A program made the position numbers and the translations under genes. The notes below the pieces were generated by a model. The model was not told the origin of the DNA, searched no databases, and was given only the letters and a program-made list of their open reading frames with translations. A stretch of 64,000 nt of DNA, taken from the NCBI GenBank assembly GCA_947479755.1, contig CANKAM010000015.1, forward strand, positions 4,441 through 68,440, in the 5' to 3' direction. The stretch is from Bacteroidota bacterium (GTDB lineage: Bacteria > Bacteroidota > Bacteroidia > SXHM01). The stretch's first letter is position 1, and each line of letters opens with the position of its first letter. This document shows positions 4,256-62,348 of the stretch, one piece after another.

Positions 4256-6058
4256 GTGAGCCAAGAAAAGGAACAGCATCTTAAAAATATCATCTCCACC
4301 CTGCCCGACAATCCTGGAGTGTACCGTTTTTCCAACGAAGAGGGAACTATTATTTATGTGGGCAAAGCCCGAAACCTGAAGAAAAGGGTAAGCAGTTACT
4401 TCAACCGCGAACAATACGAAAACCGTAAAACATGGGTGATGGTGAACAAGGTTGCAGATATTGCATACACCGTTGTTGAAACCGAACTTGATGCCCTTCT
4501 TCTTGAAAACAGCCTGATAAAAAAATACCAGCCACGCTATAATATCCGTCTCAAAGACGATAAAAGTTTTCCATGGATTTGTATCCGTGACGAACATTTT
4601 CCGCGTGTTTATGCCATGCGCAATCCGGTTAAAGATGGTTCAACTTATTATGGTCCTTATGCAAATGTGAAGATGATGCATGCCGTGCTGGAGCTGGCAC
4701 GCAGACTTTATCCAATCAGAACATGTAATTTGAATTTGACTGAAGAAAATATAAAGGCAAAAAAATTCAAAGTGTGTCTGGAATACCAGATCGGCAATTG
4801 CCTTGGTCCTTGTGAAGGTTTGCAAAGTGAGCAGGAATACAATGAAAATCTGCAACAGGTAAAACACATCATCAAAGGAAATATCCGTTCAGTTTTGGAG
4901 CATCTTGAAACGCAGATGAACGATTTTGCTGTGAAATTAGAATTTGAAAAGGCTCAGGTTGTGAAGCACAAACTTGATATGGTGGAAAAGTTCCGCGGTA
5001 AGTCAACTGTTGTGAATCCTGCGATTGGCAAGGTGGATGTGTTCAGCATTATGAGCGATGAGAAAAATGCGTACGTAAATTTTATGCGTGTAGTGGATGG
5101 AGCCATTGTGCAAACCCACACTATTGAGTTGAATAAACGATTGGATGAAAGCGATGAAGAATTATTATCGTTTGCAATCGGAGAAATTTTTGAACTCTTC
5201 GGAAGCGAGATGAAGGAAGCGATTGTGCCGTTCAGCCCCGGAATTGAATTTCCGGGTGTTGAATTTTTTGTTCCTCAACGCGGTGATAAAAAAAGTCTGT
5301 TGGATCTTTCGTTGCGTAATGCAAAATATTTCCGTCAGGATAAACTGCGAATACAGGAAAAAATAAATCCTGAGCGACATACACAGCGAATATTGGAGCA
5401 AATGAAAGTTGATTTGAGGATGAAGGAATTGCCTGCACACATTGAATGTTTTGACAATTCCAACATACAAGGTGCACACCCTGTTTCGGCAATGGTGGTT
5501 TTCAAAAATGCCAAGCCGTCCAAAAAAGATTATCGGCATTTTAACATACGCACAGTGGTAGGTCCTGATGATTTTGCATCCATGGAAGAAGTAATTACCA
5601 GACGTTACTCTCGCATGCTGGAAGAAAACCAACACATGCCCCAACTGATAATTATTGATGGCGGCAAAGGACAACTGAGCAGCGCATTGCAAAGTCTTGA
5701 AAAATTAGGACTGCGCGGAAAGATCACTGTCATCGGCATTGCAAAAAAACTGGAAGAGATTTATTTCCCTGGAGATTCGCTACCGCTTTATATAGACAAA
5801 AAATCAGAAACACTGAAAGTTATTCAACATGCGCGTAATGAAGCGCACCGCTTTGGAATTACTCACCACCGAAATCGCAGAAGCAAAGCAACCGTAAAAA
5901 CTGAACTGACTGAAATAAAAGGTATCAGCAACATTACCGCACAGAAATTATTGAAAACTTTTGGTTCAGTAAAAAAACTAAAAGAAGTAACGGAAGAAGA
6001 AATTTCAAAAGTGATTGGAAAGGCGAAAGGGAAATTGGTAGCCGAACATTTTAAATAG
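4256..6058 (+). CDS. uvrC: Excinuclease ABC subunit C
   Basis: A GIY-YIG N-terminus is present (GVYRFSNEEGTIIYVGKARNLKKRVSSYF). The length is 600 aa and the C-terminus is an RNase H-like/HhH region. It starts with GTG. Confidence 0.93.
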   Translation: MSQEKEQHLKNIISTLPDNPGVYRFSNEEGTIIYVGKARNLKKRVSSYFNREQYENRKTWVMVNKVADIAYTVVETELDALLLENSLIKKYQPRYNIRLKDDKSFPWICIRDEHFPRVYAMRNPVKDGSTYYGPYANVKMMHAVLELARRLYPIRTCNLNLTEENIKAKKFKVCLEYQIGNCLGPCEGLQSEQEYNENLQQVKHIIKGNIRSVLEHLETQMNDFAVKLEFEKAQVVKHKLDMVEKFRGKSTVVNPAIGKVDVFSIMSDEKNAYVNFMRVVDGAIVQTHTIELNKRLDESDEELLSFAIGEIFELFGSEMKEAIVPFSPGIEFPGVEFFVPQRGDKKSLLDLSLRNAKYFRQDKLRIQEKINPERHTQRILEQMKVDLRMKELPAHIECFDNSNIQGAHPVSAMVVFKNAKPSKKDYRHFNIRTVVGPDDFASMEEVITRRYSRMLEENQHMPQLIIIDGGKGQLSSALQSLEKLGLRGKITVIGIAKKLEEIYFPGDSLPLYIDKKSETLKVIQHARNEAHRFGITHHRNRRSKATVKTELTEIKGISNITAQKLLKTFGSVKKLKEVTEEEISKVIGKAKGKLVAEHFK

Positions 6059-6062
6059 ACAT

Positions 6063-6130
6063 TTCGTCACCTTGAACTTGTTTCAGGGTCTTTCTTATAG
6101 AGATGCTGAAACGAGTTCAGCATGACGAAA
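6063..6130. repeat. REP-like nested palindromic element (GTCACCYTGAACTTGTTTCAGGGTC family), copy A
   Basis: The sequence is ttcgtcaccttgaacttgtttcagggtc..gatgctgaaacgagttcagcatgacgaa, which contains two internal hairpins plus outer CGTCA/TGACG arms. It is more than 85% identical to the copy at 7184-7243. Confidence 0.7.
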
Positions 6131-6134
6131 CTTA

Positions 6135-7169
6135 CTACTTCCTATGATTTTCAATCTTATCAATAAACCCTCCAAACAAAATCTGCTTCACGCCCTCCTG
6201 AGTTAAAAATTCATGTGGAAATCCTAACTCAATTTTGCTCACTTCATTCATTCTGTTGATATGCTCCTGACTTAGTTTTACGTCAACACATTTCAGATTG
6301 TCTTTCAATTGTGCAGCATTTCGTGCGCCTACCACAGGAATTACAACACCTTTATGATTCATAACCTATTGCAATGCTACATTTCCTGCTGAACAGCCAA
6401 TTTCTTCTGCAATCTTAACCACCTCGGCAGCGATAGCCACTGAACGTTCGTTTATTCGTTTGCTTCCTTCTTTTATTCGTTTCGGGTCGTCACTTTTGGC
6501 AAGGTATTTTCCTGTTAGAGCGCCTCCTGCAAGGGGAGCCCAAGCTGTAGCAGCCAAGCCCAATTCATTTGCCATAGGCAACAAGTCACGCTCGGCATCG
6601 CGGGTAATTAAACTGTATTCAACCTGAATTCCAGCAAAGGCAGTCCACCCTCGCAAATCAGCAATTGCATCGGAGCGCGAAATAATCCATGCCGGAGTGT
6701 CTGAAATAGCAATGTGTAAGACTTTTCCTGAACGCACCATATCATCCAAGGGGCGCAATACTTCTTCAATGGGTGTAGTGAAATCCCATGCGTGAACATA
6801 AAGCACATCCACATAATCCAAACCCAAACGTTTCAGACTTCCATCTAAAGTTTGAACTAAGTTTTTGCGGTGATTCCCACTGTCGTTTATTCTTCCGATT
6901 TTGGTGGCAAGACTGTATTTTGTAGCAACAACCAGTTCATCTCTTCTTCCGCTATCTTTAATAAACTCACCAAGAAATTTTTCGCTCGTTCCTTCAGTAT
7001 AGCGGTTGGCGGTATCGATAAAATTTCCACCTGCTTCCAGAAAGGCATTAAATATGTTTTGGCTTTCTTGTTTATTGGCTCCGTAGCCCCATTCCTCTCC
7101 AAAAGTCATAGTGCCCAGGCAAATTTCAGATACACGTAAGCCTGATTTTCCAAATAGTTTGTAGTTCAT
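6135..7169 (-). pseudogene. Aldo/keto reductase interrupted by a single in-frame TAG (two ORFs, 6366..7169 and 6135..6362, in the same frame)
   Basis: The reverse-strand translation reads ...GCSAGNVALQ*VMNHKGVVIPVVGARNAAQLKDNL. The stop sits where AKRs carry the conserved Trp of the VALAW motif, so TGG became TAG. The rest of the protein has full-length AKR hallmarks: DTANRY, a Lys-containing ..ATK.., and IPVVGAR. Confidence 0.7.
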
Positions 7170-7183
7170 AGATTTTTATTTGA

Positions 7184-7243
7184 ACGTCACCCTGAACTTG
7201 TTTCAGGGTCTTAAAATGAGATGCTGAAACAAGTCAGCAAGAC
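7184..7243. repeat. REP-like nested palindromic element, copy B (direct orientation relative to copy A)
   Basis: The sequence is acgtcaccctgaacttgtttcagggtc..gagatgctgaaacaagtcagcaagacg. Confidence 0.7.
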
Positions 7244-7257
7244 GGATGGATAGCTAA

Positions 7258-7554
7258 TTAGTTCCACATCAGTTCAGGAAAACGCAATGCCTTGCTTTCC
7301 ACAAAAGCCAGTTCATCAATTTTCACTTTCATGAATTTGAATAAAGGGAAACGCTTGATAACTCTGCGCACATGGTCTTCGTCTTTTGCATTAAACGCAA
7401 TCCATAGTTTTGAACGGTCAGCTGCAAGCGAATAGTTGAGAATGATATTTTTTTCCACCAAACGATTTACAACAAAACGCTGTTGCGGAATGAGTGAGAT
7501 AAATTCTTCCGTCAGTGTTTCGGGAAGAATAATGGTTGCCATAAACTTTTGCAT
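7258..7554 (-). CDS. Small hypothetical protein (ferredoxin-like/muconolactone-isomerase-like fold suspected)
   Basis: The ORF is 7258..7623. The ATG at 7554 (MQKFMATIILPE..) gives a compact protein of about 98 aa. No confident family assignment could be made. Confidence 0.35.
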   Translation of the reverse strand: MQKFMATIILPETLTEEFISLIPQQRFVVNRLVEKNIILNYSLAADRSKLWIAFNAKDEDHVRRVIKRFPLFKFMKVKIDELAFVESKALRFPELMWN

Positions 7555-9677: not shown

Positions 9678-11741
9678 CTATTTTCCTGCCACTACAATCT
9701 TTTCCGTCACATCCAAATTATCAGAAACTAAATGCAGGAAATAAATACCTGAGCTAAGAGAAGAAATATCTATGATTGATTTTTGACCTTCGACTACGCT
9801 CAGGGTGACAACAACTTGTCCTAATGTATTTCTGATTTCTGATTTTGAGTTTTTGATTCCGTTTGGCAATTGAATATTCAATAGACTTGAGGCAGGATTA
9901 GGATAAATTGAAATTCCTGCTTCCTGTGCTTCGCTGATGCCAACTGAACCCGTAATATTTATGTCATCTATGTAAAGGAAGTTGCCTCCGCCACAAGTGA
10001 ATTCAAATTTAAAACGGACGTTATCTGACGCTGCAACATTGGTTGGCAGGCTTACTTCTACTTCTTTCCACTGGCTTAGTGATGTAGGATAAAGCGGACC
10101 ATTTTGTGCAGTAACAGTTCCTAATGCTGCGTTTGAACTTACCCAGCGCGTTGCCCATGTTTCACCGCAATTAGTAGAAACCTGTACACGCAATCTGTCT
10201 GTATTATCAGTGGTGCGCTGCGCAAATGCATAATTAAAAGTCATAGTAGGATCGGTTACCATACCCAAATTATAACTTGGGCTTATCAAATCATCAACTT
10301 CTCCAACGGTATTTGAATAGTTATTCATTCTTACCGAAGCTGCTCCTGAATATTTATAAGAAGTATTTCTGTCCCACGTGTAAGCCGTTGCATAATTTAC
10401 AATTGTCCAATCGCTTGAGAAACCGGAAGCAGATTCGAATCCTTCGCTGTAAAACTGTGCATTAAACATAGCATCACCGCTTACGTTTACATAATTGGTG
10501 CGAGTGAAACTGTCACTTCCTGTATTGTTGCTTGCAGTAAGTGTTGCACTGTAAGTTCCTGCTGTGTTATAAGTGATAGTTGGATTTTGTTCGGTTGAAG
10601 TTGAAGGTGTTCCTCCGGGAAAAGTCCAATCCCATGAAGTAGCATCACCGCCCCATGAAATGTCGTTATAGGTAATGGTTCCACCTTCGCAAACCTGCTG
10701 AACAGTTGATGCAAAATCTGCAGTTGGTGCGCATATATCCAAAATCAAATCGTTGGTTCCTGTGGCAGTAAGATTAGAACCTGATATAAGTGTTGAACGG
10801 TAATTTGAGAACGTGCTGTTGAAAATATTTTTCTGTCCGTTGGTGAAAGTTATCTGACAATTGTCGTTTGAGTAGTCCATGTAATTCTCAATCATATCAG
10901 GCTTGTCAGGATTTTCGTTGGTGCAGGAGTTGATGCTGAAATCACAACCAAAATTTGCATCAGCAGCTTTTGGTGTATCGCTAACACCATCACCACTTCC
11001 CTGACAACCACCTGAAAATGTGTGGTCAAGGCCAAGGTAATGACCAATTTCGTGTGTCAGTGTTCTGCCTGTTCCACCACTTGTTCCTATTGTTCCAACT
11101 CTGTCAGCACGCACAACAATTCCATCAATTTCAGGACCCCAGTTTACAACATCAGGCAGATAGGCATAACCAAGCGTAATAAATCCGGGCTCGCTTCCTC
11201 CTATAGATTCAACAGTCCAGACATTAAAGTATTTGTTGTTGGGCCAGCGGCTTAATCCTTTTACATTATCGTCTGCATCGGTAGTAAGGCTTGAATACAC
11301 GCGCACAATTCCTTCGGTGCAATTTCCGTTCGGGTCTTTGTTAGCCAAACGAAATTCTATTTCGGAGTTTGCTGAAACGGAAGCAAAAGTGGAACGCAGA
11401 TTTCCCGCATCGGGATTAGTTAAACTGAAGTCCTGATTTAATTGTGTAATGGCAGATTGTATTTGCGCTTTTGAAATGTTTTCAGAACCATTCTGGTGAA
11501 TTACGTGAAAAACCACAGGAATTATTCTGGTAGCTGCACGGTTTTCAATCGGGGTTACATCTGCGTGTGCACGCTCCTGACGGTAGGCTTCGCGTTGTTC
11601 TGCAATTGCAGGGTTTTCTGTAATCTTTTTAGCATACATAAAATCATTGCCGCAACGTGTTTGTTCCTGAGCAATGGAGATTTGTACTGTGAAGAAAAGT
11701 GTAGCAACTACTGCCGTTGAAAAAATGGATTTAAAATTCAT
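9678..11741 (-). CDS. Secreted M43 (ulilysin/pappalysin/cytophagalysin-like) zinc metalloprotease with T9SS C-terminal sorting domain
   Basis: It has a signal peptide and a propeptide. The extended metzincin motif HEIGHYLGLDHTF is followed by a GGC...DTP Met-turn region and beta-sandwich/PKD-like domains. The CTD is ..IYPNPASSLLNIQL..GIYFLHLVSDN..KIVVAGK. Confidence 0.8.
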   Translation of the reverse strand: MNFKSIFSTAVVATLFFTVQISIAQEQTRCGNDFMYAKKITENPAIAEQREAYRQERAHADVTPIENRAATRIIPVVFHVIHQNGSENISKAQIQSAITQLNQDFSLTNPDAGNLRSTFASVSANSEIEFRLANKDPNGNCTEGIVRVYSSLTTDADDNVKGLSRWPNNKYFNVWTVESIGGSEPGFITLGYAYLPDVVNWGPEIDGIVVRADRVGTIGTSGGTGRTLTHEIGHYLGLDHTFSGGCQGSGDGVSDTPKAADANFGCDFSINSCTNENPDKPDMIENYMDYSNDNCQITFTNGQKNIFNSTFSNYRSTLISGSNLTATGTNDLILDICAPTADFASTVQQVCEGGTITYNDISWGGDATSWDWTFPGGTPSTSTEQNPTITYNTAGTYSATLTASNNTGSDSFTRTNYVNVSGDAMFNAQFYSEGFESASGFSSDWTIVNYATAYTWDRNTSYKYSGAASVRMNNYSNTVGEVDDLISPSYNLGMVTDPTMTFNYAFAQRTTDNTDRLRVQVSTNCGETWATRWVSSNAALGTVTAQNGPLYPTSLSQWKEVEVSLPTNVAASDNVRFKFEFTCGGGNFLYIDDINITGSVGISEAQEAGISIYPNPASSLLNIQLPNGIKNSKSEIRNTLGQVVVTLSVVEGQKSIIDISSLSSGIYFLHLVSDNLDVTEKIVVAGK

Positions 11742-11746
11742 GTGAT

Positions 11747-13870
11747 TTAGAAAAATAAAATTTTGCGGACGATGATTGAATTAGTTGTTTTCAGATTCAG
11801 GAAATAAATTCCTGAAGCATGGAGTTCGTTTTTATTAATAACAATAGAATGTGCTCCTTTGTTCAGATTTGAATTAATGATGGTTCTCACATTTTTTCCG
11901 GTAATGTCGTTTACTGAAAGTTCAACCTGTTCATCAGTATTCAATGTAAAGTTTACAAATACAGTATTATCCGAAGGATTTGGAAACACGCTGAAATCGT
12001 TTTCTGAAATTACTTCTTCCACTCCCACAGGACCTGTTAAATTGATATCATCAATGTAAACATTATTACCTCCATCGCTGGTGGCTTCAAACTTAATAAG
12101 CACGTTATCCTGTGTTGCAAAGCTGCTCAGGTTAACCGAAATCTCTTCCCACTGGCTCTGCGCAGTTGGGGTAAATGATGAACTGGATGTACCCACTGTT
12201 GCAAGGTCTGCGCCCGCTTTGTTGTAACGTGTTTGCCATGTTTTTCCGCAGTTGGTTGAAATCATCACTTTCAATCTGTCTTCGCTGGCAGAGGTGAACT
12301 GTGAACCAGGGCGTTGTGCATTCGCCACTTTAAAACGCAATGTTGGCGGTGTGCTGATTGCCGTAAAATCAATAGAAGGAAAAACCAAGGCATCAACTGC
12401 GCCTGTTGTGTTTCCTGTGAAGTTGGAGATTTTCATGCACTTTGAACCGGAGTAAGCAGCGTTAGAAACCTGCTGCCAGGTGGTGGTAACATTTCCTTCG
12501 TTGAAAATCAGCCACTCGTTGTTGGTGTTATCGCCTTCAAAGCCTTCAAAAAACTGCCAGTTGCTGATGGTAGCGTTTTCGGGACTTACATAAATATAAG
12601 AGTTAATGGTTTTTGAATCGTTGCCTTGCGTGTTGGTAACAGTGAGTGAAACATTGTGAAAACCGGGAGTACTGAACTGAATATTTGGCGAAGCACTTGC
12701 TGAGCTTGTCGGGTTTCCGGTTGGGAAACTCCAGGCACGTGTATCAATGGTTCCGTTGTATGAATTGTCTGTAAAGTTGACAAGATCACCCTGACAAACC
12801 ATTGTGTTTTCTGCATAAAAATCGGCAACAGGTGCGCAGGCAACTACAGGTGTTCCATCCGTTCCGGTTGCAATAAGATTTGCAGATGAAACCAAGTCTT
12901 CACGGGTTCCGGTAAGCGTTGCATCAAACACATCTTTTTGTCCGAGGGTAAATATATTCATGCACTCGTCATTGGCGTAGTCCATGTAATTTTCAATCAT
13001 GTCGGGCAGGTCGGGATTATCATTTGTGCATGAGTTTGCAGTAGTATCACAACCAAAACTTGCATCAGCAACAGGAGGTGTGTCATCTATCTGCTCACCG
13101 AAGAAACCTCCGGTGCAACCACCCTGAAAGGTGTGAAACAAACCAAGGTAATGTCCTATTTCGTGGGTCAATGTTCTTCCTGTTCCGCCTATTTGCTGGT
13201 TCACATTTTCTATGGTTCCTATACAATCGGCACGCACAACAATACCATCGTTGCCACCACCGCCAAAACCGGGAAGTGATGAAAATCCAAGGGTAACTCC
13301 TCCTGATGTTCCATCTGATGCGATGGTGCGAACTACCCAGATGTTAAGATATTTGGTATTGTCCCACCAGATCAGGCCTTTTACATTATCACCTGCATTG
13401 CTGGTTTGTGCTGAAAAGGTGCGGGTAATTCCTTCGGTGCAATTTCCATCGGGGTCAAGTTGTGCCAAACGGAAATTGATATTAGGATTTGCTGCAACGG
13501 GTTTAAAAATATCGCGGGTATTCACGGTATCTGCATTGGTGCGGGTAAAATCTTCATTCAATACGCGTATCTGATCTTCAAGCTGTGCTTTTGAAATATT
13601 CTCCGTGCCTCCTTCGTGTATTACGTGAAAAACAACGGGGATATAACGCAAAGGATTGCCGCCTCTTAAACCTGCTTCACGCTCTTCTTTTATTATGCGT
13701 GCATTTTCAAAAAGGCGTGAATAGTTTTGTAAAGCTTCGGGGCTTTCCAGTAAATGTTTGGTTACTTTTTCATCGGTTGCGCACCGGTTTACTTGTTGGG
13801 CAGTGGTGCTGTTCAGTATGCAAAAAACAGAAAAGGCGAGGGCGGTAATTCGGGTAAAAGAGAAGTGCAT
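11747..13870 (-). CDS. Secreted M43 zinc metalloprotease, a tandem paralogue of 9678..11741, with T9SS CTD
   Basis: It has the same architecture as its neighbour: IPVVFHVIH..GTENISKAQ, HEIGHYLGLFHTF, and the CTD ..VFPNPSDNTVFVNF..GIYFLNLKTTNSIIVRKILFF. Confidence 0.8.
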   Translation of the reverse strand: MHFSFTRITALAFSVFCILNSTTAQQVNRCATDEKVTKHLLESPEALQNYSRLFENARIIKEEREAGLRGGNPLRYIPVVFHVIHEGGTENISKAQLEDQIRVLNEDFTRTNADTVNTRDIFKPVAANPNINFRLAQLDPDGNCTEGITRTFSAQTSNAGDNVKGLIWWDNTKYLNIWVVRTIASDGTSGGVTLGFSSLPGFGGGGNDGIVVRADCIGTIENVNQQIGGTGRTLTHEIGHYLGLFHTFQGGCTGGFFGEQIDDTPPVADASFGCDTTANSCTNDNPDLPDMIENYMDYANDECMNIFTLGQKDVFDATLTGTREDLVSSANLIATGTDGTPVVACAPVADFYAENTMVCQGDLVNFTDNSYNGTIDTRAWSFPTGNPTSSASASPNIQFSTPGFHNVSLTVTNTQGNDSKTINSYIYVSPENATISNWQFFEGFEGDNTNNEWLIFNEGNVTTTWQQVSNAAYSGSKCMKISNFTGNTTGAVDALVFPSIDFTAISTPPTLRFKVANAQRPGSQFTSASEDRLKVMISTNCGKTWQTRYNKAGADLATVGTSSSSFTPTAQSQWEEISVNLSSFATQDNVLIKFEATSDGGNNVYIDDINLTGPVGVEEVISENDFSVFPNPSDNTVFVNFTLNTDEQVELSVNDITGKNVRTIINSNLNKGAHSIVINKNELHASGIYFLNLKTTNSIIVRKILFF

Positions 13871-15287: not shown

Positions 15288-15440
15288 GATTCTTTAACCG
15301 CAAAGTGCGCAAAGGTTAATAGCTGCCTAAACACAAAGAGCGCAAAGCAATACAACCCTTTGCCTTTTCTTTGCGGTTTTTCTTTGCGTGCTTTGCGGTT
15401 AAACTCTTCTTTTTTACTTTTACAGCAAAATCCCATTCCC

Positions 15441-16145
15441 ATGAGCCAAGAAGAAACATCCCACCTCAAGGCAGAAATTGCCCGTCTCAACAAGATTATT
15501 AATGTGTTGTTGGAACAAAACGATGCTATTAAGGCAACTTACTCCCAACTGCTTCTTCGTTTTGAGGCAAATAATCCGACTGATAGGAAAACCTATACCC
15601 ACTTGGGACTAAGCACGTCAGTTCAATCCCAATCGTCAACCCACTTGGGATTAAGCACGCCAACTCAATCCCAACTGCCAACAGACTTGGGAATAAACCA
15701 AGCAACACAATCCCAACTGCCAACCGACTTAGGACTAAACACAGCAACTCAATCCCAGCTGCCAACCGACTTGGGAATGAGTAGGCCGCTTCATCCCGAA
15801 TCGCCAACACCTCTTCCTCTGAAACAAGAAACTATAGTTTTGCCCGAACAGATTGTTCCATCCAACACCCTGTTTGCATCCGTAGCACAGAAACTAGGGG
15901 CAGCGGGTTTCACGCGTGTAAAGAGCGGCACGCTCCAAACGGCAGCGCAACTGTTTATTCATTTTCATAACGGGGGCAATGCCGATTATGCAGGTTTGCA
16001 ACAACTCACCGGCTACTCGGCAGGCGGATTGAGCAAACTCCTGATAACCCTTCGCAAGCGCGGATTTATTCAACGCACCGGCTACGGCAAATATGGCTTA
16101 ACCGAGAGCGGAAAAACTATTTTAGCCCAAGCATTAACAACATAA
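15441..16145 (+). CDS. Hypothetical protein: N-terminal coiled coil, a 14-aa T/Q/S-rich tandem-repeat linker, and a C-terminal winged-helix-like domain
   Basis: The ORF is 15360..16145 and the likely start is MSQEETSHLK at 15441. The protein repeat THLGLS..QSQLP / TDLG..TQSQLP is encoded by 42-bp DNA tandem repeats. The C-terminus ..LRKRGFIQRTGYGKYGLTESGK.. is MarR/wHTH-like. Confidence 0.4.
   Translation: MSQEETSHLKAEIARLNKIINVLLEQNDAIKATYSQLLLRFEANNPTDRKTYTHLGLSTSVQSQSSTHLGLSTPTQSQLPTDLGINQATQSQLPTDLGLNTATQSQLPTDLGMSRPLHPESPTPLPLKQETIVLPEQIVPSNTLFASVAQKLGAAGFTRVKSGTLQTAAQLFIHFHNGGNADYAGLQQLTGYSAGGLSKLLITLRKRGFIQRTGYGKYGLTESGKTILAQALTT
15597..15785 (+). repeat. 42-bp tandem repeat x about 4.5 within the CDS
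   Basis: The units begin at 15597, 15639, 15681, 15723 and 15765 (partial). The consensus is ACCSACTTGGGAMTAARCACRBCARCTCAATCCCAACTGCCA. Confidence 0.8.
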
Positions 16146-22561: not shown

Positions 22562-22564
22562 GCT

Positions 22565-22590
22565 GTCACCCTGAGCGTAGTCAAAGGGTC
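22565..22590. repeat. REP-like unit GTCACCCTGAGCGTAGTCAAAGGGTC between convergent trpS and DinB-family genes
   Basis: It is a hairpin (accct..agggt) of the same GTCACCCTGA family. A near-identical 25-mer is embedded in the CDS at 9786-9810. Confidence 0.6.
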
Positions 22591-34135: not shown

Positions 34136-34622
34136 CAGGAAAAAACTCTTCCACCGTTTTCTCCATCTCCCGTTCTTTTTGCGTTCCTATCAGCAACCTG
34201 TCCCCATTCTTTAGCTCCAGTTGCAAACCCATATTCCCCGAAACATTACGCGCTTTATCCTTTCCCCACCCGCGAATTCCCCAGCCTCCATATTCATAAA
34301 TTGGTTTGTATTGGCGCACGTAAGCCTTTTCAATTTCATCCCATTTTTTCACTTTGTAGTTTATCTGAAAAGGAAAAAAACGATAATGCACACCTTCCGC
34401 ATCAACCTTAGTATCTAACCGCAAGAACAAAAACAAAACAATTAAAAGCACAGGAATTATGCTGAACATAATCAGCCCCTCATTACTTGCCGGGTTATCA
34501 CCAAACGGCTCACCCAAATAAAACTGTTTGTATAAACCATAAAGGTGTAATCCTGCAACTCCAATAATAATTAGCCATAGCCACCATTGGGTAAAGCGTT
34601 GTGTTTCGGTGAAGATTTTCAT
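34125..34622 (-). CDS. Hypothetical membrane protein (two TM helices + cytoplasmic PH-like domain), downstream partner of the XRE regulator
   Basis: The TM helices are WWLWLIIIGVAGLHLYGLY and LIMFSIIPVLLIVLFLFL. Its start overlaps the stop of 34619..34990 by 4 nt. Confidence 0.4.
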   Translation of the reverse strand: MKIFTETQRFTQWWLWLIIIGVAGLHLYGLYKQFYLGEPFGDNPASNEGLIMFSIIPVLLIVLFLFLRLDTKVDAEGVHYRFFPFQINYKVKKWDEIEKAYVRQYKPIYEYGGWGIRGWGKDKARNVSGNMGLQLELKNGDRLLIGTQKEREMEKTVEEFFPAKS

Positions 34623-34990
34623 TGCTTCTTCTTATTTAACTCCTCCATCCTTATTTTAAGCATCTCCGCCTCAAATATTTTCACCTTTGCAATCGGTTGC
34701 GATTTCAAAAAAGTCACCACATCCGTACTCTCATTTACCCGCAACAATTCATATAAATGATGCTCGGGTGGATAAACCTTCCCCGCATCAGCCTTCATTA
34801 CAAAAAGGTCATTCGGTGTACATTGAAAAATATCACATACCTTTTCAATATCCTTCACATCCCATTTCTTCATCCTCCCCGTTCCCATCCGCCAGGCTTT
34901 TTGTTTCTCAATTCCACCCTTTACCAGTGCTTCAGTAACGTTGGTCCAGCCCTTCTTCTGGGCTACTCGTCTCAAGTCAAATTTCATCAT
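34619..34990 (-). CDS. XRE-family (Cro/C1-type HTH) transcriptional regulator
   Basis: The HTH_XRE-like segment is LRRVAQKKGWTNVTEALVKG..WDVKDIEKVCDIFQCTPNDLF. The protein is 123 aa. Confidence 0.6.
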   Translation of the reverse strand: MMKFDLRRVAQKKGWTNVTEALVKGGIEKQKAWRMGTGRMKKWDVKDIEKVCDIFQCTPNDLFVMKADAGKVYPPEHHLYELLRVNESTDVVTFLKSQPIAKVKIFEAEMLKIRMEELNKKKQ

Positions 34991-35046
34991 AATTATTTGA
35001 TATTAAAATGTTTAAATTAAATTATTCCGTAAAATATAGTAAGCAA

Positions 35047-35201
35047 TTAAGTCTAGTTATTTATCCTTTAAGTCTGTCTATTTAGTAATTAAGTCTGGTT
35101 ATTTAGCAATTAAGTCTAAACATTTAGCATTTAAGTCTGTCTATTTAGCAATTAAGCCATAATATTATTAAATTAAGTCCAAATATAAAACAATTAAGTC
35201 T
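35047..35201. repeat. Array of eight direct repeats with exact 21-bp periodicity (core TTAAGTCT..TATTTAGC) in a divergent promoter region
   Basis: The TTAAGTCT cores are at 35047, 35068, 35089, 35110, 35131, 35152 (ttaagcca), 35173 (ttaagtcc) and 35194. Every spacing is exactly 21 bp. Confidence 0.85.
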
Positions 35202-35393
35202 TCCAACACAAAAACCCCTCTTAAAATTCAAAATAAGAGAACAACATTTGCATAAACTTTTGGCTTAGGTCTGCGAATTAAATCTGTGCTAATCTGTGAA
35301 ATCTGTGGCAGAAATAAGATTGCTGAAAAATTGCCCTCGCCCCTCCGCACCTTTGCCAGCAATCTTATTTATATTTGCCCAAAACCTATCATC

Positions 35394-36701
35394 ATGAAAT
35401 ACGCTCAGATATCAAACAAACTCTTTATTGAAAACCGCAACCGTTTAACGCAAAAACTAAAACCAAACTCGGTTGCCATTTTCAACAGCAACGATATTAT
35501 GCCCACCAATGCCGATGGCACCATGGCCTTCCGCCAAAACAGCGATTTGTTTTACCTCAGCGGCATTGATCAGGAAGAAAGCATCCTCATCCTCTTCCCC
35601 GATTCATTGAATAAGGACTACAAAGAAGTTCTCTTCGTGCGCGAAACCAACGAATACATAGCAGTGTGGGAAGGAGCGAAGCTCACCAAAAAAGAAGCCA
35701 CCGAAGTTTCGGGAATAAAAACTGTTTTCTGGCTCTCGGAATTCGAACGCGTCTTCAATACCCTGGTGGCCGAAGCACAAAACGTTTACCTCAATACCAA
35801 CGAACACCTGCGCGCCACCATTGAAGTTGAAACCCGCGATGCCCGCTTCATTAAAAAGTGCAAAGACCGCTTTCCCCTGCATAATTACGAGCGCAGCTTT
35901 CCCCTGCTCATGGAACTCCGCTCCATAAAATCCGAAACCGAAGTAGAGTTAATCCGTCAAGCCTGCGCCATTACCAAAAAAGGATTTATGCGCACCCTCG
36001 CCTTTGTAAAACCGGGCGTTATGGAATATGAAATTGAAGCCGAACTAATCCACGAGTTTGTCCGCAACCGCTCCCGTGGCTTTGCCTACGGACCAATCAT
36101 TGCTTCGGGCCTCAACTCCTGTGTACTGCACTATGTTGAGAATAATAAAGAGTGCAAAGACGGTGATATCTTATTAATGGATGTAGCTGCCGAATACGCC
36201 AACTATGCTTCAGACCTTACCCGCTGCATTCCCGTAAATGGTAAATTCACCGAAAGACAAAAGCAGGTTTACAATGCCGTATTGCGTGTAATGAAAGAAG
36301 CTACCTCCATGCTTCGCCCAGGAATTATCATCAGCGAGTTTAATAAGGAAGTAGGTAAAATAACCGAAAAGGAATTAATAGGTCTTGGCCTCTTCACCGA
36401 AAAAGAGGTGCGCGACCAAAACCCCGACCAGCCTTTGTACAAAAAGTACTTTATGCACGGCACTTCGCACTTTCTTGGATTGGATGTTCACGATGTAGGC
36501 GACTTCAACAAACCCGTTCAACCCGGAATGGTGTTTACTTGCGAACCCGGCATCTATATACCTGCAGAAAAAATAGGTATCCGCTTAGAAAACGACATTT
36601 TGGTTACCAACGGCAACCCCATCGACCTGATGGCCGATATTCCTTTAGAAGCAAATGATATTGAAGCCCTGATGGCTGAATCAGTGAAGGTTCTTATATA
36701 A
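35394..36701 (+). CDS. pepP: Xaa-Pro aminopeptidase (M24B, aminopeptidase P/prolidase family)
   Basis: It has the M24B metal-ligand blocks ..DILLMDVAAEY.., HGTSHFLGLDVHDVG and ..GMVFTCEPGIY. The ORF opens at 35286 and the likely start is MKYAQIS at 35394. Confidence 0.85.
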   Translation: MKYAQISNKLFIENRNRLTQKLKPNSVAIFNSNDIMPTNADGTMAFRQNSDLFYLSGIDQEESILILFPDSLNKDYKEVLFVRETNEYIAVWEGAKLTKKEATEVSGIKTVFWLSEFERVFNTLVAEAQNVYLNTNEHLRATIEVETRDARFIKKCKDRFPLHNYERSFPLLMELRSIKSETEVELIRQACAITKKGFMRTLAFVKPGVMEYEIEAELIHEFVRNRSRGFAYGPIIASGLNSCVLHYVENNKECKDGDILLMDVAAEYANYASDLTRCIPVNGKFTERQKQVYNAVLRVMKEATSMLRPGIIISEFNKEVGKITEKELIGLGLFTEKEVRDQNPDQPLYKKYFMHGTSHFLGLDVHDVGDFNKPVQPGMVFTCEPGIYIPAEKIGIRLENDILVTNGNPIDLMADIPLEANDIEALMAESVKVLI

Positions 36702-49492: not shown

Positions 49493-50056
49493 GTGCTTAT
49501 TACCCATCCTAAACTAACCAAGCTTCTTCAACAGGCATATTCTGCTGAAAAAGCTGCTGCTTTTGCTTATCAGGGACATGCCGGTTCATTAAAAAATCAG
49601 GATGAAAAAATTCCTGTTCGCCAGATAGAACTTGACGAATGGAAACACCGCGAAGAAGTACTGAAGATAATGAAACAGTATCAAATTCCTGTTTCAAAAA
49701 AGTTTGAAGTTCAGTTTCATGTTATCGGCAAAATTATTTCAGGGAGTTGTTATGTTATCGGCTGGTTTATGCCTTATTACTTTGCGGGCAGATTAGAAAG
49801 CGGAAACGTATGCGAGTATTTTGTGATGATCCATTATTTTCATGAGTTGGGTATTAAGGAGCACGACCAGATACTATATGAAATGGCTATCAAAGAAAAA
49901 GAACACGAAGTTTTTTTTCTTGAAAAAGTAAAGGGAAGTAAGTTGTTGCCTTTCTTTGAAAAGCTGTTCAACTGGGGAAAGAAAAGCAGCTTTAATGATG
50001 TTGATCTGGAAAATAAATTTCCGGCAGAACAATCCGAAAGTTATTGCAAGAAATAA
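49493..50056 (+). CDS. Ferritin-like diiron protein (MiaE/Coq7-like hydroxylase family suspected)
   Basis: It has two E-x-x-H pairs (ELDEWKH.., ..KEKEHE..) in a four-helix pattern. It starts with GTG. The family assignment is tentative. Confidence 0.35.
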   Translation: MLITHPKLTKLLQQAYSAEKAAAFAYQGHAGSLKNQDEKIPVRQIELDEWKHREEVLKIMKQYQIPVSKKFEVQFHVIGKIISGSCYVIGWFMPYYFAGRLESGNVCEYFVMIHYFHELGIKEHDQILYEMAIKEKEHEVFFLEKVKGSKLLPFFEKLFNWGKKSSFNDVDLENKFPAEQSESYCKK

Positions 50057-50058
50057 CA

Positions 50059-50112
50059 CTTCGACAAGCTCAGTGTGACAATACGCTTGGGTCATCCTGA
50101 GCTTGTCGAAGG
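50059..50112. repeat. Imperfect 21-bp-arm inverted repeat (CTTCGACAAGCTCAG-TGTGAC ... GTCATCCTGAGCTTGTCGAAGG) between convergent genes
   Basis: The arms are 50059-50079 and 50091-50112. It is related to the GTCAYCCTGAGC REP family. Confidence 0.6.
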
Positions 50113-50134
50113 AGTGCGGGTGTATTACTATTTT

Positions 50135-53133: not shown

Positions 53134-53219
53134 TTTTAAATAGTTTTTATGTTTATGGTTTCGGTGACAAATGTATTTTGCCATAATAACAGCAGTAATG
53201 AGTTTTGTCAGCAAAAAAT

Positions 53220-53244
53220 ATGATAATTATCAATAAAAAGACCT
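53220..53244 (-). promoter_or_regulatory. 25-bp conserved element containing a CRP/FNR-type TGAT-N4-ATCA palindrome, copy 1 (oriented toward the fasciclin gene)
   Basis: The sequence atgataattatcaataaaaagacct is 23/25 identical to the reverse complement of 54369-54393. The palindrome centre lies 51.5 nt from a TAcaTTTG -7 box (53168-53175, minus strand). Confidence 0.55.
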
Positions 53245-53336
53245 TATTGTCTTCTTTTCTTTGTGGCCGAAAAACTTATTGATTTAATTTCAAACAGGAA
53301 AGAAGCTTAACTCATTGATAATATAGAAATAAAAAT

Positions 53337-54273: not shown

Positions 54274-54330
54274 CGTCATGCTGAACTTGTTTCAGCATCT
54301 CTGAGACCCTGAAACAAGTTCAGGGTGACG
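54274..54330. repeat. REP-like nested palindromic element, inverted-orientation copy of the 6063/7184 family
   Basis: The sequence is cgtcatgctgaacttgtttcagcatctctgagaccctgaaacaagttcagggtgacg. Confidence 0.7.
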
Positions 54331-54368
54331 TAGTGCAAACCTGTTTCCTTAATTAATAAAAGATAAAA

Positions 54369-54393
54369 AGGTCTTTTTATTGATATTAATCAT
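54369..54393 (+). promoter_or_regulatory. 25-bp conserved element with TTGAT-ATTA-ATCAT (CRP/FNR-type box), copy 2, upstream of nosC-nosZ
   Basis: The sequence is aggtctttttatTGATattaATCAt. The palindrome centre is 51.5 nt upstream of the -7 box at 54438. Confidence 0.55.
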
Positions 54394-54437
54394 GTTTTTG
54401 CCTGACCAACCTCATTATCTCCCGCTTAAAGAGCGGC

Positions 54438-57016: not shown

Positions 57017-57052
57017 GAAAAGGGGAGGGAGGGTTTACCTCCCCTTTTTTTT
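57017..57052 (+). terminator. Rho-independent terminator/attenuator directly after nosZ
   Basis: The sequence aaaaggggagggagggtttacctcccctttttttt is a GC stem followed by a U8 run. Downstream nos accessory genes continue on the same strand. Confidence 0.6.
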
Positions 57053-60995: not shown

Positions 60996-62348
60996 TTAAT
61001 GTTTTATGAATTTTGCTGTTTTAGAATTTCCATTTTCATTTAATTTAATAATATAAACACCGTTTGTTAAATTAGAAATGTCTATAATAAAATCATTTGA
61101 ATTCATTTTTTTAGTGAACACTATCTGACCAACTGAATTGTAAATAGTTATGAGGGATTCATCTTTTAAAATTAAATTAATAAAATCTTTAGCTGGATTT
61201 GGATAAAAAATGATACTATTATTATTTACTATTTGTTCAGAAATACCTAAAACAGTAGAAGTATTCCAATACACATTTGTGTCATCTGCAAATCCTTGAA
61301 TAATGATATCTTTTAGTCCATCTCCATTAAAATCGGCTATGACACAATCGGCAATATATTCACCTCCCAAAATTTGGGTTTGAACAAAAGTATTATTACC
61401 ATCATTTCTATAAACTATATTGAAAATATTCGGCAAACCACCAGCTTGACTACCCACTATTAATAAGTCTTGGTCTCCATCGTTATCCAAATCTGCAAAG
61501 GCATTTTTTCCAGCAAAAGTTTGTTGAAGATTGGTGGAAATAGATGAAAAAAGTCCTGCTCCATTATTGATGTATAATAAATTTTGAGTATTGCCATTGA
61601 TAATTAAATCTAAATCTCCATCATTATCTGTATCAGCCACTTCAATACCTTCAGCAGAAATTGCTGGGAATGTTGTATTTATGTTTAAAGTATATACCCC
61701 AGAACCATTATTTTGATATAATTTAATGGTATTTGAACCAGAAATAATAACATCTTGGTCTCCATCGTTTTCAATATCAATAATTTGTACAATTCCATCT
61801 ACTGGAGTAAAAACGGAGTTTCCTTGTGGCGTGAAAACTGCATTTCCGTTGTTAAGGTAAATATCAGAAATTGTAGCAGTTGTAATAACCAAGTCTTGGT
61901 CACCATCATTGTCCACATCAGCAATAGCAGCTCCTTCAATAAATACAGGCAAATTATTAGGTACTTGTGTAAAATTTCCCAAGCCATCATTTCTATAAAT
62001 ATTTGCAAATTTTTGGGCAAGTTCATTCTGTCCAGAGAAAAACAAGTCTAAATCTCCATCACCATCTAAATCTTTAAAAAATGCTTGGCTATTTCCTGAA
62101 CGAGGAAAATTATGAGTTACCTCTGTGAAATTTCCAGTTCCATCGTTTTTATAAAGTTTCGTCCAAGGACCTATTCGAGTCATCAATAAGTCTAAGTCTC
62201 CGTCTCCATCTATATCTCCACTTGCAAATATTCCGCCATAACCCTCCATTATGTTAGGCTGTGGATTTGCTAAAGTGAAATTTAATGTTTGACTGTAGCC
62301 ATTTATACAAATTAGTATAATGGTCTGAATTAATAAAATTTGTCTCAT
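60996..62348 (-). CDS. FG-GAP/VCBS-repeat (integrin-alpha-like beta-propeller) protein with T9SS C-terminal sorting domain; AT-rich gene
   Basis: It has a signal peptide, at least seven D.DGDGD.D calcium-binding FG-GAP loops, and the CTD ..IFYPNPAKDFINL..GVYIIKLNENGNSKTAKFIKH. Its GC content is visibly much lower than that of the flanks. Confidence 0.7.
   Translation of the reverse strand: MRQILLIQTIILICINGYSQTLNFTLANPQPNIMEGYGGIFASGDIDGDGDLDLLMTRIGPWTKLYKNDGTGNFTEVTHNFPRSGNSQAFFKDLDGDGDLDLFFSGQNELAQKFANIYRNDGLGNFTQVPNNLPVFIEGAAIADVDNDGDQDLVITTATISDIYLNNGNAVFTPQGNSVFTPVDGIVQIIDIENDGDQDVIISGSNTIKLYQNNGSGVYTLNINTTFPAISAEGIEVADTDNDGDLDLIINGNTQNLLYINNGAGLFSSISTNLQQTFAGKNAFADLDNDGDQDLLIVGSQAGGLPNIFNIVYRNDGNNTFVQTQILGGEYIADCVIADFNGDGLKDIIIQGFADDTNVYWNTSTVLGISEQIVNNNSIIFYPNPAKDFINLILKDESLITIYNSVGQIVFTKKMNSNDFIIDISNLTNGVYIIKLNENGNSKTAKFIKH

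Follow-up and report, generated by a model that had tools for sequence, protein, structure and literature searches.

Palindromic units at seven sites in the window

Short palindromic elements recur at gene ends in a 64-kb stretch of a Bacteroidota genome (assembly GCA_947479755.1, contig CANKAM010000015.1), hereafter the window, which carries about 54 genes and is 92.7% coding, with 12 convergent, 30 tandem, and 11 divergent junctions. Positions are window coordinates unless a locus from another genome is named. Units of one architecture were found at seven sites, six intergenic and one intragenic. They are very probably CGTC-tagged repetitive extragenic palindromes (REPs), the main copies belonging to family CGTC-2, and as such non-autonomous mobile DNA lodged at gene ends. 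The first-pass annotation had proposed a REP-like palindromic family at gene 3' ends; all the element sites that it listed exist, with small coordinate corrections (6065-6127, 7185-7246, 22564-22590, and 50056-50116), and the family corresponds to the published CGTC-tagged REP superfamily.

Each unit consists of an unpaired (C/T)GTC tag, an 8-position stem starting with A, a loop of 5-6 nt (CTTGT, CTCGT, or CGTAGT), and a C-Y-N tail. The main type combines the stem A-[TG/CC/TC]-CTGAA with a CTTGT or CTCGT loop and a CTT or CTC tail. The tag is CGTC at 2458, 2548(-), 6065, 6127(-), 7185, 54274, and 54330(-), TGTC at 9810(-), 22564, and 50080(-), and GGTC at 50090. Dimers occupy five of the seven sites, four with the tags facing outward and one with the tags facing inward; single units occupy the rest.

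Three of the tags-outward inverted dimers are built of CGTC-2 units. The dimer at 6065-6127, whose palindromic flanks extend to 6062-6130, lies between the stop codons of uvrC (6058) and an aldo-keto reductase gene (about 6135) and comprises CGTCACCTTGAACTTGTTTCAGGGTCTT as its left arm (6065-6092, +; one G.T pair) and CGTCATGCTGAACTCGTTTCAGCATCTC as its right arm (6100-6127, -). At 7185-7246, between the start of the aldo-keto reductase gene (7169) and the stop (7258) of an upstream gene of 94-121 aa, an intact unit, CGTCACCCTGAACTTGTTTCAGGGTCTT (7185-7212, +), faces a degenerate arm, CCGTCTTGCTGA-CTTGTTTCAGCATCTC (7219-7246, -), which carries an A>T change in the tag-proximal stem and a 1-nt deletion. 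The dimer at 54274-54330 (-35 kcal/mol) begins 17 nt past the stop of an Rrf2 regulator gene and pairs CGTCATGCTGAACTTGTTTCAGCATCTC (54274-54301, +) with CGTCACCCTGAACTTGTTTCAGGGTCTC as the right arm (54303-54330, -).

The other sites hold variant forms. The fourth tags-outward dimer, of the GTCATTGCGAG type, lies at 2458-2548 between an outer membrane protein (OMP) beta-barrel gene (stop 2453) and CTP synthase (stop 2553); its left arm is CGTC-ATTGC-GA-(variable inner hairpin)-GAA-GCAAT-CTC (2458-2492, +), its right arm is CGTCATTGCGAGCGATAGCGAAGCAATCTC (2519-2548, -), and it folds as RNA at -38 kcal/mol (z -7.7). The tags-inward dimer at 50056-50116 (-33.3 kcal/mol, z -6.8), between the open reading frame (ORF) 49493-50056 and NAD kinase (stop 50135), consists of TGTCACACTGAGCTTGTCGAAGTGT on the left (50056-50080, -) and GGTCATCCTGAGCTTGTCGAAGGAGTG on the right (50090-50116, +). 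A single unit, TGTCACCCTGAGCGTAGTCAAAGGGTC (22564-22590, +), separates a class-I aminoacyl-tRNA synthetase gene (stop 22561) from a DinB-family gene (stop 22592). The intragenic unit, TGTCACCCTGAGCGTAGTCGAAGGTC (9786-9810, -), lies in frame in the Por_Secre_tail region, the type IX secretion system (T9SS) C-terminal domain (CTD), of an M43/PKD protease. The neighbors of the intergenic sites are ordinary genes: OMP barrel and CTP synthase, uvrC and aldo-keto reductase, a small MIase-like ORF and aldo-keto reductase, class-I aminoacyl-tRNA synthetase and DinB-family, an ORF and NAD kinase, and Rrf2 regulator and cytochrome c.

Loops and stems differ among the variants. The units of 50056-50116 have CTTGT or CTCGT loops, those at 22564 and 9810 have the 6-nt loop CGTAGT, and those of 2458-2548 carry a nested mini-hairpin in place of the loop. 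The stems run ATCCT-GA-G-CTTGT-C-GA-AGGAT at 50090, ACCCT-GA-G-CGTAGT-C-GA-AGGGT at 22564 and 9810, and ATTGC-GA-[variable inner mini-hairpin]-GA(A)-GCAAT at 2458-2548. Read by eye rather than computed, the GAGC...CGAA variants, which otherwise appear as short stems with large loops, would have the same 8-position stem, provided that tandem G.A pairs are counted; nearest-neighbor folds give these pairs no credit. The GAGC...CGAA and ATTGCGAG... forms are variants within the CGTC-tagged REP superfamily, whereas their tandem G.A pairs and 6-nt or nested loops place them outside its four published families. The likeness of the nested hairpin at 2458-2548 to the other copies had been seen before and stands, but it goes beyond the structural analogy then suggested, since the dimer has the same CGTC tag and architecture.

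Four pattern searches exclude a chance origin of the repeated units. The 25-mer, with up to 3 mismatches, matched 3 times in the window versus 0 in 100 shuffles, and GTCAYNNYGARC matched 10 times versus 0.54 +/- 0.67 expected. The pattern GTCAYNNYGA matched 12 times, with 11 of the 12 inside these units. The 23-mer GTCACCCTGAGCGTAGTCGAAGG matched exactly in the coding sequence and with one mismatch at 22565, versus 0 expected, which bears out the earlier statement that the coding match is beyond chance. Dimers form long hairpins, which reach -31 to -38 kcal/mol as RNA (z-scores -6.7 to -8.9) and -17 to -25 kcal/mol as DNA; lone units show no significant stability by themselves in either fold.

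Family assignment and taxonomic spread

CGTC-tagged REPs were described by Di Nocera, De Gregorio and Rocco (BMC Genomics 2013; PMC3733652) as hairpins with an unpaired CGTC or TGTC tag (in a variant also CCTC) at one end, an 8-9-bp stem starting with A-T, a 4-5-nt loop, and a 3-nt tail that is mostly CCA. They occur mostly as inverted dimers, with heterodimers in CGTC-2, the family with an 8-bp stem and a 5-nt loop; they lie near 3' ends, between convergent or unidirectional ORFs, with occasional intragenic copies, and, unlike GTAG REPs, they have no associated transposase (PMC3733652). The published hosts are Proteobacteria, Chlorobi, Bacteroidetes (Gramella forsetii), Spirochaetes, and Thermotogae (PMC3733652).

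We assign the main copies to CGTC-2 because tag, stem length, loop, dimer layout, and position match this definition. The window and the published family share the CGTC/TGTC tag, the 8-bp stem starting with A, the CTTGT/CTCGT loop, a 3-nt tail (in the window CTT/CTC), mostly inverted dimers that are often heterodimers, 3'-end placement, occasional in-frame intragenic copies, and the lack of a flanking transposase. The 8-bp stem is present in all CGTC-2 copies, and its first position is always A; the second is T in the TGCT and TCCT types and C in the CCCT type (41/163 units in other genomes). Apart from the CTT/CTC tail and the frequent A-C start, the window copies agree with the published consensus. 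The published intragenic CGTC-2 example, from Sulfurovum, encodes the peptide RHSELVSGS (PMC3733652), and CGTCATTCTGAACTTGTTTCAGGATC translates to this same peptide. The host differs: the window comes from an uncultured Bacteroidia lineage, whereas the clearly Bacteroidetes host of the earlier paper is Gramella forsetii. The elements are of an already described, very widespread kind, and it is the host lineage that is new.

Two further repeat families belong to the same superfamily. Rickettsia RPE-4 and RPE-6 correspond to CGTC-4 and CGTC-1, respectively, and the Neisseria dRS3 repeats to CGTC-1 (Di Nocera et al., PMC3733652). The Rickettsia elements (RPEs), like the coding copy in the window, sit in frame in protein genes without destroying them; they are described as residue-adding insertions, whereas the window unit replaces a T9SS CTD stretch of equal length (+1 codon). 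The dRS3 repeats are likewise tagged palindromes scattered between genes, of a different family with a 4-nt loop and another stem. Filamentous prophages use dRS3 as an integration target; no such use was seen in the window material.

A one-genome-per-species scan with GTCAYSCTGAACTYGTTTCAGSRTC found the same 25-mer in at least 120 genome loci, a lower bound, across many phyla, and additional copies are present in the loci of relatives. The isolates include Sphingomonas, Novosphingobium, Erythrobacter, Pedobacter, Roseivirga, Flavobacterium, Cnuella, and a Rickettsia endosymbiont. The metagenome-assembled genomes (MAGs), with labels as deposited, include Treponema, Ignavibacteria, Nitrospirota, Elusimicrobia, Melainabacteria, several candidate-phyla-radiation (CPR) groups, and one Nanoarchaeota. 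The GAGCGTAGTCGA unit was found in at least 120 metagenome loci. Among 452 perfect units gathered from the fetched loci, the tags were CGTC (261), TGTC (160), AGTC (21), and GGTC (10); the commonest loops were CTTGT (255) and CTCGT (59); and the tails were CCA (163), CTC (88), CTA (63), and CTT (62), the latter three totaling 213. By eye, CCA tails occur mostly in alphaproteobacterial-type dimers. In one Melioribacteraceae MAG (L093, 147-869; L-numbers denote fetched loci), five CGTC-2 units form a tandem array in direct orientation with a period of about 145 nt, unlike the usual inverted dimers.

The hairpin is maintained through compensatory change. The scan pattern left two stem pairs free, allowing 16 possible combinations, and the units fell into TG/CA (73), TC/GA (48), and CC/GG (41), with one mismatch; thus, 162 of 163 were complementary. 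In a relative, the GAGCGTAGTCGA loop is set on a CTTC/GAAG stem in place of CCCT/AGGG.

Other searches gave no competing identity. No Rfam covariance model matched at gathering score in the whole window, and a permissive Rfam search of 6040-7260 gave only chance-level miRNA matches (E about 1-3). Literature searches by raw sequence yielded only primer noise, and searches by REP-encoded peptides yielded no match. Hammerhead, CRISPR-repeat, attC, dif, and tRNA-like readings were judged from the sequence and dropped, as core motifs or array organization were missing.

Placement at gene ends and role in the transcript

At each of the six intergenic sites, the distance to a stop codon is 1-17 nt; four of the junctions are convergent, two tandem, and none divergent. 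This agrees with the earlier description of short gaps at gene ends, often between convergent genes. Ten of the 11 units fall within the 7.3% of the window that is non-coding (nominal p 4e-11, with units treated as independent); counted by site, the figure is 6/7 (p about 1e-6, a hand estimate). The same bias appears in 120 loci of other genomes, where 27 convergent, 52 tandem, and 7 divergent placements stand against baselines of 109, 425, and 99; convergent junctions are enriched and divergent ones depleted (odds ratio for convergent versus divergent 3.5, p 0.005).

Such placement would also suit bidirectional intrinsic terminators that evolved in place and were never mobile, as most sites lie between convergent genes, the hairpins are very stable, and a terminator scan flagged a few inner single-unit hairpins with T-rich spacers (6069-6089 and 7239-7222). 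Nevertheless, we regard this account as very improbable. Evolution in place cannot produce nearly the same sequence at unrelated junctions and in many phyla, and relatives differ in the presence or absence of the elements. No T-run follows the whole-dimer hairpins, and the scan left the dimers 50056-50116 and 54274-54330 unflagged; within the elements, it flagged only inner single-unit hairpins such as those just named. Canonical hairpin-plus-T-run terminators exist elsewhere in the window (52547-52506 and 57027-57043), and terminator-like hits overall lay less than 2 standard deviations above the shuffle mean (27 versus 20 +/- 4.8; 24 versus 16 +/- 4.3). A terminator role had been proposed for the elements; in its canonical form, it is not supported.

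The elements would be co-transcribed into mRNA 3' ends, where, by analogy with E. coli REPs, a 3' hairpin may limit exonucleolytic decay or read-through. Since the whole-dimer hairpins lack U-tracts, this role as an RNA stabilizer or read-through barrier is one that we infer from the analogy.

Filled and empty junctions in relatives

Syntenic loci of relatives were reached through M43 protease orthologs with 73-89% protein identity. Presence/absence polymorphism was found at four sites, and at three of them another palindrome is present in at least one relative. At the uvrC/aldo-keto reductase junction, the convergent genes overlap in L127, L128, and L130, while the window has about 83 extra nt, including the dimer, and new stop codons for both genes. 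At 7185-7246, L130 is empty, with a 10-nt gap, L127 shares the window dimer down to its degenerate arm, and L128 carries instead a CGTCATTGCG-type dimer from a different CGTC family. The stretch downstream of the M43 stop shows four states among nine relatives. No element is present there in the window and L129; a CGTC-2 dimer occurs in L127, L128, and L134 and one differing in composition in L131, a further palindrome in L132 and L133, and a GC-rich hairpin in L130. At the CTP-synthase junction, the window and L132 have the dimer in common, and L128 has an unrelated hairpin. Four short-read uvrC contigs from Logan (L123-L126) all end exactly 72 nt past the uvrC stop, which is the end of the dimer, because assemblers break at repeats. 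As sites are filled, empty, or otherwise filled among syntenic relatives, the elements are mobile or have been so in the past.

In this lineage, several repeat families land at gene 3' ends in general, and insertion is presumably tolerated at such positions. Other palindromes found in relatives at these junctions are a hairpin in L128 (19185-19240) with GTAG immediately before it, the palindrome CAGACCTTGAAGG..CCTTCAAGGTCTG in L132 (7199-7260) and L133 (3670-3730), and the GC-rich element CCCCTCTCC..GGGAGAAG in L130 (12061-12100). The units mark such gene ends as insertion hot spots for palindromes.

The dispersal had been called MITE-like, after miniature inverted-repeat transposable elements (MITEs). 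Mobile dispersal is supported by the insertion polymorphism among syntenic relatives; the strict MITE label is not, because no target-site duplication is visible, no insertion sequence (IS) with these ends was found, and single units and mixed-type dimers occur. Bacterial MITEs such as Correia are similarly small, non-coding, dispersed inverted repeats near genes that are co-transcribed with them; however, they carry IS-matching terminal repeats and target-site duplications, whereas the arms in the window are autonomous hairpin units. It is hardly credible that the elements are deletion derivatives of a DDE-transposase IS whose 26-28-bp terminal inverted repeats survive as the arms, even though the dimers resemble inverted repeats around a short variable core and are dispersed and polymorphic. 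Single units exist (22564-22590 and the coding copy), arms of different families pair, tags-outward and tags-inward pairs both occur, and each arm is by itself a covarying hairpin. Flanking direct repeats are lacking, the comparison of filled and empty sites shows no duplication, with ambiguous junctions, and no full-length IS with such ends was present in any locus fetched.

The aldo-keto reductase gene (6135-7169, -), which has REP dimers on both sides, carries a TGG>TAG change at Trp268 (codon 6363-6365) in the window and in two other assemblies. L128 and L130 have an intact gene, and L132 has no such gene but a GAGCGTAGTCGA-type REP dimer at that place.

The copy within the M43 protease gene

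The ORF 9678-11741(-) encodes an M43 + PKD + Por_Secre_tail protein, and the minus-strand unit at 9786-9810 encodes V-T-L-S-V-V-E-G-Q, within ..GQVVVTLSVVEGQKS.., confirming the earlier report of a copy that encodes T9SS CTD residues. The unit is identical to the cosmopolitan REP consensus at 23/23 positions, and its hairpin potential is lost. Across 16 ortholog clusters, the window reads GQVVVTLSVVEGQKS where orthologs read GQVISQSLITNQKS or similar, and is one residue longer. Fourteen of the 16 clusters lack the unit and have in its position an equally long, unrelated sequence. In the DNA, an exact REP stretch of 24 nt in the window corresponds to 21 unrelated nt in relatives, and the conserved Ser codon is AGC in the window versus TCA/TCT in relatives. 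This substitution of unrelated nucleotides, together with the different Ser codon family, points to discrete replacement rather than gradual drift. The coding copy is a REP-derived patch that overwrote about 9 T9SS CTD codons in frame and was nearly length-neutral. The L129 ortholog (75% identical) has a related patch, GTCAACCTGAGCATAGTCGAAGGG, at the same codons but on another CTD background, implying either two acquisitions or recombination.

Derivation of the element from conserved CTD coding sequence had been named as an outcome that would count against the proposal. Spelled out as a rival, the unit GTCACCCTGAGCGTAGTCGAAGG would have arisen from T9SS CTD coding sequence, and the intergenic copies would be decayed gene fragments. 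The coding copy is in frame and suits the beta-rich CTD, V-x-T-L is common in CTDs, and L129 supplies a second ortholog with a related patch. We nevertheless give this derivation next to no likelihood, given the 14 unrelated ortholog clusters and the differing Ser codons, and relatives hold the unit as an intergenic dimer with a covarying stem. The 24-mer of the coding unit was also found in at least 120 metagenome contigs of very varied composition, often in inverted dimers and, from flanks read by eye, apparently mostly in non-coding DNA. Because this 24-mer is widespread, apparently mostly non-coding, and often dimeric, the REP is the source of the CTD copy, and CTD sequence is not the source of the REP.

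The in-frame copy in a secretion-signal domain is the only unusual detail of the window elements, and an exact in-frame REP in a T9SS sorting domain that is polymorphic among orthologs offers a small natural case of selfish DNA turning into protein sequence. In the relative Bin_39 (L003, 6413-6500), part of the signal peptide of a T9SS cargo protein, VMLNLFQHQ, is encoded by an in-frame CGTC-2 unit; in a 78%-identical ortholog of this cargo (L351, 1455-1560), the copy is equally long but diverged and no longer has its tag. Immediately 5' of the ATG, L003 has a CGTCATTGCGAGC unit that L351 lacks. In L129, an IS110-family (DEDD) transposase gene (5250-6257) lies 1.6 kb downstream of the M43 ortholog with the second REP-like CTD patch; IS110 elements target REPs in other bacteria. 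The ORFs 9678-11741 and 11747-13870 (both -) are tandem paralogous M43/PKD/T9SS-CTD protease genes, a pair kept in all relatives examined; their DNA repeat blocks are 74-82% identical, and their proteins are about 45% identical.

Weighing the assignment and candidate movers

Several observations weigh against reading the elements as mobile CGTC-tagged REPs. The tails in the window are CTT/CTC where CCA was published, and half of the units begin with A-C instead of A-T. Multi-copy status rests on 64 kb together with relatives and contig breaks. The dimer hairpins are without T-runs. Filled and empty junctions differ by an extra 7-20 nt, so that a target-site duplication is neither shown nor excluded; exact insertion boundaries are ambiguous because the intergenic DNA of the relatives is too diverged. 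Single-mismatch stems have G.T (31) and A.C (30) about equally often, giving no sign of strand-specific selection, and this parity favors neither strand, and neither RNA nor DNA, as the level of the hairpin constraint. Moreover, all-against-all ORF clustering of 120 loci revealed no recurrent neighbor gene, a regular-expression search of 3505 ORFs from the first 134 loci and the window revealed no HUH...Y motif, and the 49 ORFs bracketed by inverted units were housekeeping or phage/gene transfer agent (GTA) structural genes, with 0 transposases.

No transposase was found beside any copy in the window. The absence of a mover gene near the units agrees with the published lack of a dedicated transposase (PMC3733652). 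We found no later paper that settles what moves CGTC REPs. The preferred though unproven mover, and the most likely one, would be a single-strand DNA nuclease of the HUH Y1 (IS200/RAYT) type acting in trans, where RAYT stands for REP-associated tyrosine transposase. It is favored because the tag-plus-hairpin unit has the layout of a guide-tetranucleotide-plus-hairpin substrate.

A more specific proposal, which we consider possible but unlikely, is that the elements are REPINs (REP doublets) of the classical RAYT system, with a RAYT gene elsewhere that is flanked by the same units and moves single-stranded hairpins. The tag-plus-hairpin layout parallels the GTAG REPs cut by E. coli TnpA-REP, Bacteroidetes own the RAYT subclass 2.6, flanked by "atypical secondary structures", and the inverted-dimer organization is REPIN-like. 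The GTAG REPs, REPINs, and bacterial interspersed mosaic elements (BIMEs) of E. coli and Pseudomonas further resemble the window elements in their unpaired 5' tetranucleotide, extragenic 3'-end position, proposed role in mRNA 3' stability, and mobile-DNA behavior. However, their tag is GT[AG]G, whereas the window tags are (C/T)GTC in every copy except for the GGTC at 50090. RAYT-linked REPs are also species-specific, whereas this 25-mer is near-identical across phyla. In the original survey, no host was found to have a RAYT or IS200 gene with CGTC units on its flanks (Di Nocera et al., PMC3733652), and neither the window nor the roughly 1 Mb of fetched loci showed one.

Alternatively, a broadly shared trans-acting system might move CGTC REPs, keep them uniform, and write units by templated patch replacement, an idea that we hold to be improbable. 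A shared system would account for the same 25-mer from Sphingomonadales to Bacteroidota, Treponema, CPR, archaeal MAGs, and GTA/prophage clusters, and patch replacement would account for the length-neutral in-frame overwriting of the CTD at the same codons on two CTD backgrounds.

The CGTC-2 25-mer also occurs on 96 IMG/VR "viral" contigs (L135-L230). About 30 of them hold RcGTA-like head-tail clusters (portal, S78 prohead protease, capsid, and GTA-gp10) with REP dimers between the genes; others carry terminase, baseplate, or Mu GemA genes. Phage carriage as the vehicle of dispersal was considered and set aside, as about 30 of the 96 contigs hold GTA-like clusters of alphaproteobacteria and so represent chromosomal loci.

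What moves CGTC REPs has been asked since 2013, and the filled, empty, and differently filled Bacteroidia junctions would lend themselves well to addressing this. For genome annotation, masking the units as REPs is advisable; contig breaks and spurious small ORFs trace back to them.

Other repeats in the window

Near the 54274-54330 dimer, a 63-nt inverted repeat (53196-53258 and 54355-54417, 83% complementary) brackets a 153-aa ORF, the Rrf2-type regulator gene, and the dimer itself, with no transposase inside; the repeat may have arisen by duplication of operator or promoter DNA. At 35037-35204, in the divergent gap between the ORFs 34619-34990(-) and 35286-36701(+), a 21-nt unit (TATTTAGCAATTAAGTCTnnn) is repeated in tandem about eight times, and these repeats resemble iterons or arrayed binding sites. 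Coding tandem repeats were found at 15601-15810, in 42-nt units inside the ORF 15360-16145(+), and at 61465-62226, with a period of about 144 nt inside the ORF 60996-62348(-).

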